Source: an uncultured Burkholderiales bacterium (GTDB taxonomy: Bacteria > Actinomycetota > Acidimicrobiia > IMCC26256 > JAGPDB01). From it: a stretch of 64,000 nucleotides of DNA. The stretch spans positions 99 to 64,098 of the forward strand of contig CAZLQP010000002.1 in NCBI GenBank assembly GCA_964561855.1. The letters run 5' to 3'. The notes below the pieces were generated by a model. The model was not told the DNA's origin. It did no database searches and saw only the letters and a program-made list of their open reading frames with translations. Below are positions 49,845-53,890 of this stretch, one piece after another. The position numbers and the translations under genes are program-made. The first letter of the stretch is position 1, and every line of letters starts with the position of its first letter.

Positions 49845-50606
49845 ATGCAGATTACTTTAAATGTATGGCGACAAAAAGCAAATAGCGATAGTGGTCATTT
49901 TGAAACGTATGAGATCGACGATATCAGCGAAGATATGTCTTTTTTAGAGATGTTTGACATTCTCAACGAGAGACTGATTGCGAAAAATCTAGAACCCGTA
50001 GCTTTTGATTCGGATTGTCGTGAAGGTATCTGCGGCATGTGCTCAATGATGATCAATGGACAAGCACACGGACCAGAAACTGGAACTGCTACCTGTCAGC
50101 TGCATATGCGCACCTTTAACGATGGTGATGTAATCACAGTAGAACCTTTTAGAGCAACATCATTCCCTGTAGTAAAAGACCTGACCGTTGATCGCTCACC
50201 TCTAGATCGTATTGTAGAAGCTGGAGGTTATATCCAAGCTCCTACGGGCACTGCTGGAGATGCAAACCTCACTTTAATTCCAAAAGCAGTAGCAGATACA
50301 GCAATGGATGCTGCTCAATGTATAGGTTGCGGCGCATGTGTTGCAGCTTGTCCCAATGGTGCAGCGAGTTTGTTTACCGCTGCGAAAATGATGCACTTGA
50401 ATTTATTACCTCAAGGTCAACCACAGCGTTACGATCGTGCAATCAATATGGTTGAAACAATGGATTCTTTCTTTGGGTCTTGCACAAATCATGGTGAATG
50501 CCAAGAAGCATGCCCGAAAGAGATATCTATTGACTTCATTGCATTAATGAACCGTGATTATGTAAAAGCACAGTTAAAAAATCGTGCGACTGTTTCGCAG
50601 AAATAG
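49845..50606 (+). CDS. sdhB: Succinate dehydrogenase iron-sulfur subunit
   Basis: 253 aa with the Cys clusters CREGICGMC, CIGCGACVAACP and CTNHGECQEACP. Confidence 0.9.
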   Translation: MQITLNVWRQKANSDSGHFETYEIDDISEDMSFLEMFDILNERLIAKNLEPVAFDSDCREGICGMCSMMINGQAHGPETGTATCQLHMRTFNDGDVITVEPFRATSFPVVKDLTVDRSPLDRIVEAGGYIQAPTGTAGDANLTLIPKAVADTAMDAAQCIGCGACVAACPNGAASLFTAAKMMHLNLLPQGQPQRYDRAINMVETMDSFFGSCTNHGECQEACPKEISIDFIALMNRDYVKAQLKNRATVSQK

Positions 50607-50609
50607 GTT

Positions 50610-51134
50610 TTAATCTCTACTGAAAATTGCATAGGTAGCTTTAACCCGTGCTTGCTGTTCAACAGTAATACCCATTCCTGTTTTGCCGTTTCTGAATCTA
50701 TACATTTGCGGGGTTACTTCAGCTCCCTCTATCAGCTTTCTAATAGTCTTTCGTGTGCTAGAACAACTTGCAGCAATCTGGCCCAATGAATTTACATCTT
50801 CACCCGCAAAGGGAATATCTGGAAAATCGCTGTAGAACTCTTTTACGTGTGTAAATTCATCAGGAGTAATACACAGACCTAAACTTTTCCCTTTCGCACT
50901 AAATAAAAGATCTCGAGGTGTGACCCCTGCACCAACGATGAGCTCAAAGAGAGTTTCGTAAGCAACATGGTTAGTCCTAGCTAACGTATTTACTAGTAAT
51001 GGTTGATATGATTTTTTCTCTTGAAGAGCTTTTTCGAGAATTTCAATCTGATCAAGTGTATAACCATTTCCAAGCACACCACGAAAACGATATTTTTGAG
51101 GAGACACTTCGGTTTCTCTAAGCAACATAGCCAA
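50610..51134 (-). CDS. Tandem-repeat HTH-like protein, downstream part (annotated TTG start truncates the first repeat)
   Basis: 174 aa with 2.5 copies of a ~55-aa module. The 5'-adjacent 57+ nt in the same frame encode the missing half-module but contain no ATG/GTG/TTG. Confidence 0.55.
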   Translation of the reverse strand: MAMLLRETEVSPQKYRFRGVLGNGYTLDQIEILEKALQEKKSYQPLLVNTLARTNHVAYETLFELIVGAGVTPRDLLFSAKGKSLGLCITPDEFTHVKEFYSDFPDIPFAGEDVNSLGQIAASCSSTRKTIRKLIEGAEVTPQMYRFRNGKTGMGITVEQQARVKATYAIFSRD

Positions 51135-51217
51135 TTTGTCTTTTCCAATTCCAAGCTTTTCTAGTAATCGAAATTCGCTTATTACGCCTTCAGTAGCGTT
51201 TTCTCTGGACCTAGTAT

Positions 51218-51835
51218 TTAAAAAGGTTCTAGTAATTGTAAGTCGCTTTCAGTCAACCCACGACCCATTGCTGAGCCAAATTGGTATTCTTTCAACTCAA
51301 GTCCGAGCCTTTGTATTTCTTTTTCGAGGGTATTGGCATGTAACTTATATTGTCGAAGTATCTTTGAGACTGGAGTAATGCCTTTTGTGGCTTTCATCTC
51401 TCGTCGCTTTTCTAATAAAGGAATTATTAACTCGAGTTGTGCAAGCGTGTACGCTTCTACCCTATGCACTTTTCTAAACATGTAAATGCAGGGTTCGATT
51501 CCTAATGATCTAGCAATACTTTTGATAGTTTTTGGCGCCATCTCAAATCTTTGCGATAGCTTACTGACGGTTATCGTATCTTCTGTAAGATCTCTTGGAC
51601 GATACGCTTCTTCAATTTGTTGAATTTCTTGTGCAGTTAAGCCCTGCAGTCTTTTTCGACCGTTGCCATTAACATGTGATCCGAAACTCTGAACCAGTTG
51701 CCACCGAAGCTCAATATTTAAACCTCTAGCTAGTTCTTTCCAATCTCTAGAAGATAATTGAGGAAATTCTTCTTTTAGGTCTTCTAGTGTAAAAAAATCA
51801 TCTTCGTCCGAAAGGCCAATTTCATCTCGCGTCAC
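51218..51835 (-). CDS. Tandem-repeat HTH-like protein, upstream part
   Basis: 205 aa with three ~55-aa modules of the pattern I..v..L......a.kTI.k....LGI.P..Y.F........GLT..Q...IE..Y. Confidence 0.6.
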   Translation of the reverse strand: MTRDEIGLSDEDDFFTLEDLKEEFPQLSSRDWKELARGLNIELRWQLVQSFGSHVNGNGRKRLQGLTAQEIQQIEEAYRPRDLTEDTITVSKLSQRFEMAPKTIKSIARSLGIEPCIYMFRKVHRVEAYTLAQLELIIPLLEKRREMKATKGITPVSKILRQYKLHANTLEKEIQRLGLELKEYQFGSAMGRGLTESDLQLLEPF

Positions 51836-53506: not shown

Positions 53507-53890
53507 TTATACTCCACCGAAAATAAGAGGAACAATAAACAAATAAAGCCCAATACCCATTGGAATCAAGAATACAATACTCATATCAATTCCAAACAAC
53601 CAGTAGTTGATTTTTCTTATGATTAATTCTTCTCCGGGAGAATTCAAAAATCCAGTTGCAACGATACTTGATGTAAAAGGTATGGCCAATATAAATACCA
53701 GCGACGATAGCAGAGTGATTAGTCCAAAATACCCATAATATATGTGGCTGATAAGCAAGTATATTAAAAGTCCGGGTGCGACAAAAGCGATAAGAACAAC
53801 AGCTAACAGAAGTAGCGCATGTAATCCTATTGCAAAATAACCTAGTATTTTTCCGAATTGGATGTCCTTGAAAAAAGTTGATGATTTCAT
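53507..53890 (-). CDS. Hypothetical integral membrane protein
   Basis: 127 aa with about 4 TM helices and an AAGGAGG Shine-Dalgarno 6 nt upstream. Confidence 0.55.
   Translation of the reverse strand: MKSSTFFKDIQFGKILGYFAIGLHALLLLAVVLIAFVAPGLLIYLLISHIYYGYFGLITLLSSLVFILAIPFTSSIVATGFLNSPGEELIIRKINYWLFGIDMSIVFLIPMGIGLYLFIVPLIFGGV

Follow-up and report, generated by a model that had tools for sequence, protein, structure and literature searches.

A putative array of six winged helix-turn-helix modules, apparently encoded by a single frameshifted accessory gene, in an uncultured Acidimicrobiia genome

Introduction

The window analyzed in the present study is a 64,000-nucleotide stretch of contig CAZLQP010000002.1 (assembly GCA_964561855.1) from an uncultured member of the Acidimicrobiia. 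Between sdhB and the gene for an EamA transporter, its minus strand carries two adjacent open reading frames (ORFs), A and B. An earlier reading of the letters, hereafter the original prediction, described them as two ORFs with six copies of a helix-turn-helix (HTH)-like module that suited the recognition of a repeated or extended DNA target. The locus raises the question of what is encoded here: two proteins or one, and a chain of DNA-binding modules or something else. The explanation that we favor, with some reservation, is a single gene for six winged HTH modules that would act together as a multivalent DNA binder.

Results

The six modules form a genuine repeat

Both ORFs exist on the minus strand, and all six module strings quoted in the original prediction were found verbatim in their translations (Table 1; modules 1–3 are A1–A3, and modules 4–6 are B1–B3). 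Smith-Waterman comparisons against shuffled sequences gave z-scores of 11.1 for B1-B3, 9.7 for B2-B3, 6.8 for A2-B1, 6.0 for A2-A3, 5.2 for A1-A2, and 5.1 for A3-B1, and these pairs connect all six modules. A hidden Markov model (HMM) built from the six window modules found 5–8 periodic matches, at a spacing of approximately 65 amino acids (aa), in four proteins encoded by two related genomes, which is an independent test of periodicity. Module 1 is the weakest and most divergent copy. It represents the conserved N-terminal head variant of the family, with the motif F..[FL].[ED]L...[YF]P......W..LA (also given as F..L.[ED]L...[FY]P......W..LA), and is conserved across 12 stand-alone (class-1) proteins, namely, ORF A and 11 others. 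When a profile of these 12 head sequences was compared with that of the canonical modules, the alignment extended across all 52 columns (hhalign probability 93.7%, P 1.9e-7). The six-copy repeat of the original prediction is, thus, confirmed as genuine and above chance by the shuffle z-scores, the periodic HMM matches, and the head-profile alignment.

The canonical modules were aligned as a set of 25. The iterated consensus, of 52 positions, reads S-I-x-x-x-A-x-x-x-x-I-x-x-x-x-L-x-x-L-x-x-x-x-G-I-x-P-x-x-Y-x-F-x-x-x-x-G-x-G-x-T-x-x-Q.

Table 1. Coordinates of the array gene, its modules, and the surrounding segment in the window
Feature	Coordinates	Strand	Remarks
ORF A	51218..51835	-	205 aa, GTG start, TAA stop 51220-51218; N-terminal half, modules 1–3
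ORF B frame (-1 relative to A)	50610..51248	-	212 open codons, stop codon 50610-50612; C-terminal half, modules 4–6
T5 homopolymer (A5 on + strand) in CCTTTTTAAAT	51220..51224	-	Frame A stops, frame B continues
Module 1	51602..51796	-	A aa 14-78; family-specific N-terminal variant, long hairpin
Module 2	51413..51577	-	A aa 87-141; HMM match
Module 3	51221..51379	-	A aa 153-205; HMM match
Module 4 (B1)	51024..51185	-	B-frame aa 16-69; HMM match 62.5 bits
Module 5	50832..50999	-	B-frame aa 78-133; HMM match 56.3 bits
Module 6	50631..50795	-	B-frame aa 146-200; HMM match 68.9 bits
Genome-specific segment	50607..51962		1.36 kb between sdhB and EamA, only in this genome

Two ORFs, almost certainly one gene

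The description of the locus as two ORFs was not upheld. An AAGGA Shine-Dalgarno-like motif is located approximately 11 nucleotides (nt) 5' of the GTG start of ORF A, which ends at the TAA within CCT TTT TAA AT; the B frame overlaps this end. One added T gives CCT TTT TTA AAT, which reads P F L N. If a T is read twice (a -1 shift), or if a T6 run is restored, the two frames join as ...LLEPF-LNTRSRENATEGVISEF... in a product of 408 aa. The fused product is colinear, module by module, with a 406-aa single-ORF protein of the congeneric genome G006, and the junction EPF|LNT aligns with QPFLTD of this intact homologue. The other stand-alone family members are all single ORFs of 290–630 aa (two in G003, two in G006, and the representatives P0003, P0008, P0010, P0013, P0015, P0024, and P0027). 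The class-1 cluster representatives are single-ORF without exception (10/10), and the window gene is the only member split in two. The start of module 4 is 17–19 codons ahead of the earliest ATG, GTG, or TTG in the B frame, and its first strand and helix are upstream of any canonical start codon. Since the fused product is colinear with intact homologues, these homologues are single-ORF, and module 4 lacks a start of its own, the sequence indicates that the two ORFs are almost certainly one gene of approximately 408 residues broken by a one-base frameshift. The public gene calls on the contig are P0002 (205 aa) and P0011 (172 aa, from an internal ATG).

The loss of one base from a homopolymer is the commonest mutation and also the commonest assembly error. 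A generally indel-prone assembly was considered and rejected: when the ORFs of relatives were compared with this genome, the 49 strong matches included 0 other splits. Both frames are otherwise stop-free, and any inactivation would, therefore, be recent. We lean toward a real one-base deletion at the T5 run, and the gene was probably inactivated freshly in this genome. An assembly error at this site is possible, with a distinctly lower probability.

It is unlikely that the ORFs are expressed as they stand, as two proteins or through programmed -1 slippage. In the two-protein version, B would start from TTG 51134, ATG 51128, or a non-canonical codon. The former two are the earliest canonical starts of the B frame, and family members with merely 3–4 modules exist, which is in keeping with the independent expression of the halves. 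However, both starts are within module 4 and would remove β1, α1, and half of α2, and no homologue of the array gene is split. In the slippage version, tRNA-Phe would slip by -1 on U UUU UAA; the Phe-tRNA in the P site can move one base back and still pair perfectly, with a stop codon then in the A site. The absence of indels among the strong matches, which makes the T5 run probably real, and the two stop-free frames also fit expression of the ORFs as they stand. However, the junction has no canonical X XXY YYZ slippery heptamer, and no frameshift-stimulating RNA structure was found; the 100 nt downstream folded no better than shuffled sequences (z -0.29). A programmed frameshift site at the T5 run is, in our assessment, quite improbable.

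A 22-nt direct repeat (51159-51180 and 51227-51248; 19/22 identical, 68 nt apart) flanks the frameshift site. Its copies are read in different frames, as S-E-F-R-L-L-E at the start of module 4 and S-D-L-Q-L-L-E at the end of module 3, and the rough chance expectation of such a repeat is approximately 0.01–0.02 for the region. Translational bypassing between the two copies was rejected because the product would lack parts that are conserved in homologues, namely, the linker and the initial elements of module 4.

Predicted fold of the modules

The AlphaFold2 model of module 6, obtained with the 25-module alignment, had a mean predicted local distance difference test (pLDDT) score of 89.1 and the order helix-helix-strand-strand-helix (H-H-E-E-H). 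The model of ORF A, obtained with an alignment of 12 family N-termini, had a mean pLDDT of 86.4 and a predicted template modeling score of 0.59, and contained three units, each with the elements β1-α1-α2-β2-β3-α3. A pLDDT below 50 was confined to the first 10 residues, and a further dip in confidence (mean pLDDT 55) fell on residues 51-60, where the long hairpin of module 1 has its tip. The predicted elements are E14-16, H17-23, H29-38, E44-49, E60-67, and H68-78 in module 1; E87-89, H90-97, H101-110, E116-120, E124-130, and H131-146 in module 2; and E153-155, H156-163, H167-177, E182-186, E189-195, and H196-202 in module 3. The models (pLDDT 86–89; three β-α-α-β-β-α units in ORF A) reproduced the order that the original prediction had read in each module: an HTH, a hairpin, and a helix.

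Since a domain of approximately 53 residues is too small for an E-value, the fold assignment rests on template modeling (TM) scores and on the consistency of the matches. The best superposition in the Protein Data Bank (PDB) was with pSK1 Par on centromere DNA (8csh; TM 0.76, root-mean-square deviation [rmsd] 2.6 Å, 52 columns). RacA bound to DNA (5i44) superposed with a TM of 0.63 and a probability of 0.92, and the Xis of mycobacteriophage Pukovnik and BldC bound to DNA were also among the best-fitting chains (TM approximately 0.5). Each of these chains is a DNA-binding winged HTH domain of the MerR-like type, and none of the matches was statistically significant. In a library of viral models, the top matches were excisionases, PrtN, and HTH proteins labeled 'MerR-like' and 'SinI-like' (TM 0.55–0.67). 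The models show the two-helix HTH and two-stranded wing of the excisionase fold, with viral and Pukovnik matches at a TM of 0.5–0.67 and non-significant E-values. The architecture of MerR itself, a winged HTH with a long antiparallel coiled-coil dimerization helix and a C-terminal effector region, was not found: the modules have no match to the MerR HMMs (PF13411 / PF00376), no coiled coil, and no effector domain, and the helix at the module end is just 7–16 residues long and leads through a linker into the next module. PDB entry 1ND9, considered for the comparison with IF2_N (see below), was absent from the list of 50 fold matches. The models support the assignment of the modules as winged HTH domains, nearest in fold to those of the MerR and excisionase type.

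Nearest sequence families

Neither ORF matched Pfam or NCBIfam at E <= 10. Single modules gave scattered weak matches to many HTH families of Pfam. No named family accounts for the module, in line with the original prediction. The excisionase family HTH_17 (PF12728, TIGR01764) was absent from the per-module scan. When the module profile was aligned with 12 HTH_17 domains from relatives, hhalign gave a probability of 7% (P 0.005), which did not exceed that of the column-shuffled controls. In two helicase-fused relatives (described below), the IF2_N scores summed to E 2e-9 and 1e-10, and a direct profile-profile comparison was therefore made with an IF2_N profile built from the infB domains of this clade. 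The module profile matched it with a probability of 81% (P 1.2e-5, 44 columns), against a maximum of 1.6% among 30 column-shuffled controls. The IF2_N model itself (PF04760) has a cut-off of 25.3 bits, which was not reached by any window module; the best array module anywhere scored 14.2 bits, in G003, and the only PF04760 matches in the window genome were its two infB copies.

The nearest named family, as judged from sequence profiles, is IF2_N, and the nearest domains, as judged from predicted models, are the winged HTH domains of MerR and Xis. The likeness to excisionases and MerR that the original prediction had seen stands for the predicted fold; however, it fails for the sequence. IF2_N and the MerR/Xis domains would both belong to one SCOP superfamily (a.6.1, 'putative DNA-binding domain'), and the two results would then be compatible.

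A profile search of PDB sequences returned only designed repeat proteins and scattered HTH matches, and the matches to PHROG families were marginal (an HNH endonuclease, E 0.0017; a D5-like regulator, E 0.015). A word-indexed homology search with ORF A returned ORF A itself only. PADLOC identified nothing among the window proteins or the conserved neighbors of the relatives' copies. The modules form a rare family without a Pfam or NCBIfam model, inside a known fold class.

Distribution and architectures

Among 201 genomes of the order, the module profile matched only three of the seven species of the uncultured genus to which the window belongs, and 400 further genomes of the phylum contributed one marginal match. 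A related-locus search with the head-module alignment returned two relatives only, both already found and both labeled as Acidimicrobiia/Actinomycetota MAGs. When 1.84 billion cluster representatives were searched exhaustively with HMMER, 314 proteins were retrieved at E <= 0.001, 103 of them at E <= 1e-10. The phylogenetic profile of the module that had been called for is, thus, that of a rare domain.

Architectures were classified among the best 150 of the 314 matches. Class 1, the family of the window gene, accounted for 10 of these 150 and consists of a head module and 3–7 canonical modules in one ORF; the fused window product, with a head and five canonical modules, belongs to this class. 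At least 45 of the 150 have an N-terminal superfamily II (SF2) helicase (ResIII and Helicase_C) followed by 2–8 modules at a domain E <= 0.01, with up to 10 stretches when counted in the exhaustive search. The module is, thus, not confined to the window locus and occurs elsewhere as C-terminal arrays on SF2 helicases. The helicase cores resemble the motors of type I and type IV restriction systems, PbeA, RadD, and XPB. In most of the remaining proteins of the best 150, the array follows an N-terminal region of approximately 270–420 aa without a Pfam domain, and the rest are array-only fragments. The ten representatives checked came from clusters of one or two sequences, all metagenomic, and the sole name given to any of them by any source was 'superfamily II DNA or RNA helicase'. 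What is new here is the arrangement of the modules in tandem arrays, both in stand-alone proteins and fused to helicases.

Examples of the architecture with a domainless N terminus are P0019, P0021, P0022, P0026, and P0029; this region (approximately 280–420 aa) may be another uncharacterized domain that uses the same array. In the longest members, P0003 and G006_617 (L012:7146-8999), the head is set apart from the remaining modules by a segment of approximately 80 aa with a high content of E, A, Q, and R, which resembles a coiled coil.

Discussion

We propose that the intact form of this accessory gene, of approximately 408 codons, would encode a soluble cytoplasmic protein of six tandem winged HTH modules (approximately 52–65 aa each, with linkers of approximately 12 aa), in which module 1 would be the head variant that defines the stand-alone family and modules 2–6 the generic unit. 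Each module would fold in the β1-α1-α2-β2-β3-α3 order of the small domains of MerR, excisionases, RacA, BldC, and IF2-N1. The chain would be a multivalent binder of nucleic acid, with α2 of each module in the major groove and the basic hairpin on the backbone or in the minor groove. The array may recognize or cover a site that is extended or repeated, in the way of a head-to-tail filament of BldC or Xis whose units are already covalently joined. In this genome, one T lost from a T6 run would interrupt the gene. As assembled, it would yield a complete 205-aa product (the head and two modules) and, at best, also a truncated C-terminal product.

Nucleic-acid binding is suggested because of the predicted fold, the HTH-like turn, the enrichment of Lys and Arg in the hairpin columns, and the recurrent fusion of the arrays to DNA translocases. 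On these grounds, binding to DNA, most likely double-stranded, appears rather likely, and the array would probably engage DNA at several sites at once. The proposed covalent filament has mechanistic precedents. BldC, a single MerR-like domain, forms head-to-tail multimers on direct repeats, the number of which varies (PMC5859096), and Xis and related recombination directionality factors are oligomeric on DNA in a manner similar to BldC (PMC11963761). TraN of plasmid pIP501 has two excisionase-like HTH domains in one chain (an 'internal dimer') and binds double-stranded DNA (PMC6158623).

The modules resemble BldC of Streptomyces and the Xis excisionases in their small fold of an HTH, a two-stranded wing, and a helix, and these proteins also lack the coiled coil and effector domain of MerR. 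However, BldC and Xis are single domains of 50–70 aa that oligomerize non-covalently, whereas 3–10 domains are joined per chain in the array family, and no membership of the window modules in the HTH_17 family was found by HMM. RacA and pSK1 Par, which gave the best superpositions, coat repeated chromosomal or centromere sites with a MerR-like winged HTH. In contrast to the array, each has one DNA-binding domain and a coiled coil, and their identity to the module is 12–16%, with non-significant E-values. TraN (4pm3, also among the fold matches) shares the possession of several HTH domains per chain; however, it has two only, belongs to another sequence family, and is encoded in a conjugation operon. 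The helicase-fused relatives share the design of an enzyme or motor joined to a string of small modules with homing endonucleases that have NUMOD1 repeats and with topoisomerase V, which has (HhH)2 repeats. The folds and families differ, and the likeness is one of design only. Weak matches to NUMOD1 and to the NUMOD-like part of I-HmuI were found within the arrays.

Several observations weigh against the proposal. The isoelectric point (pI) does not mark the proteins as basic, with values of 8.25 (fused form), 6.4 (ORF A), and 5.3–9.3 (the family as a whole). Neither a genome-wide TRF search nor the repeats around the gene revealed a short direct-repeat array of a suitable period. Foldseek returned no match at E <= 0.001 in the PDB and viral model searches. 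In Escherichia coli, the N1 domain of IF2, which represents the nearest sequence family, is a protein-interaction module that binds NusA rather than DNA (PMC12297416). The gene may also be dead in this genome. The original prediction had speculated that the target may be one of the dispersed palindromic repeats of this genome; whole-genome and local repeat searches found no evidence of a link between the array gene and REP-like (repetitive extragenic palindrome-like) sequences.

NusA binding by the IF2 N1 domain suggests another function. The modules may mediate contacts between proteins in the manner of IF2-N1, and the array would then be a scaffold or adaptor, and not a DNA binder, that tethers partners such as transcription or translation factors or brings the fused helicases to a partner protein. 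IF2_N is the nearest sequence family in the profile comparison, far ahead of the excisionase HTH_17, and the summed scores of the helicase-fused relatives point the same way. IF2_N itself is present in one or two copies connected by flexible linkers, and the N1 domain reportedly has the β-α-α-β-β-α topology (Laursen et al. 2003, cited in PMC12297416) that is predicted for the modules. The near-neutral pI of the family and the presence of CbpM, a MerR-like fold that binds the J-domain of CbpA, among the fold matches are also compatible with a scaffold. However, the best structural superpositions are with DNA-bound winged HTH domains, the fusion partners of the arrays are DNA translocases, and IF2_N remained below its threshold on every window module. 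Since IF2_N and the MerR/Xis domains would have one small fold in common, likeness in sequence would not tell their functions apart. IF2_N also differs in its position at the N terminus of IF2, where its recorded activity is NusA binding, and the hairpin of the window modules is longer and carries a conserved P..Y.F....G.G motif. We regard a protein scaffold as rather unlikely. Binding to RNA, in the manner of a multi-KH array, is highly improbable. The topology of the module is identical to that of the type I KH domain, and in a Foldseek search with the three-module model, tandem KH proteins (Nova, IMP, and FBP) ranked first at E 0.02–0.2. However, these matches had a TM of 0.14–0.22 and an rmsd above 14 Å, and a single module fits KH domains less well (TM 0.32–0.38) than MerR-like domains (0.63–0.76). 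The 25-module alignment has no conserved GXXG loop between α1 and α2; this loop reads as an HTH turn, LG[IV][SGD].

We return to the DNA-binding array. Small winged HTH domains of the MerR and Xis type are known to act singly, with several copies gathering on DNA. Three to ten such domains in one chain, repeatedly joined to helicase motors, constitute a family without a curated Pfam or NCBIfam model, and no description of it was found in the literature searched. As a tentative extension, which is possible but not the likelier outcome, this undescribed family may be a concatenated, DNA-coating array of the BldC/Xis type with a programmable number of modules (3–10), serving bacteria as a chromosomal or accessory DNA organizer when it stands alone and as the DNA-recognition tail of restriction-type SF2 translocases. 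If this is true, it would be a new way to aim a defense or repair motor at extended DNA features. The family would also be a natural model for studying how DNA is recognized multivalently, and annotation pipelines, in which all its members are now labeled 'hypothetical' or simply 'helicase', would gain a new domain. Within this genome, the finding is a minor one: a lineage-specific accessory gene.

Genomic context

The array gene is convergent with sdhB across a gap of 3 nt (50607-50609), and its divergent neighbor encodes an EamA transporter (Pfam E 4e-16); both had been read correctly from the letters. In four congeners (G001, G002, G005, and G006), EamA directly follows sdhB, as expected of an accessory gene between the two. 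The distance from the sdhB stop to the EamA start is roughly a dozen bases in G001, G002, and G005. It is approximately 160 nt in G006, where the gap holds a palindromic hairpin. Beyond EamA, the congeners keep the order of the window, with TetR, a 167-aa membrane protein, a 112-aa ORF, and xseA; G002 lacks the TetR and 167-aa genes. The array gene is, thus, accessory and lies in a 1.36-kb insertion specific to this genome, beyond which synteny is mostly conserved; no target-site duplication or terminal repeats were seen at the borders of the insertion. The GC fraction was 0.39, against 0.405 overall.

In other members of the genus, the family genes belong to an island of variable content that is flanked by trpS and guaB. 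The constant part of this island is a conserved protein of 356–359 aa that adjoins the family genes and has no Pfam, NCBIfam, or PADLOC match. The window genome has the trpS-guaB island on another contig (G000 C4:53988-59281), without a family gene.

Some minor features of these regions were also recorded. A terminator-like hairpin with a T-run (50585-50599, minus strand) is located just downstream of the stop codon of the array gene, inside the last codons of sdhB, and could serve both convergent genes. The palindrome in the G006 spacer, approximately 60–220 nt past the sdhB stop (L093, G006:C77), is long and perfect (GGGGTTGAACCTTACAA ... TTGTAAGGTTCAACCCC) and is reminiscent of REP-like hairpins elsewhere in the clade. 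Between the TetR and 167-aa membrane-protein genes, the window encodes a predicted membrane protein of 127 aa (53507-53890, minus strand). It has no counterpart in the syntenic regions of the four relatives, in which the TetR and 167-aa genes are approximately 120 nt apart where both are present, and its gene may be a second small genome-specific insertion. The contents of the trpS-guaB island vary (L010, L012, and L048) and include array-family genes, uncharacterized proteins of 408 and 591 aa, and a beta-helix protein; the island of the window genome encodes a protein of 533 aa that has a hydrophobic segment at its N terminus.

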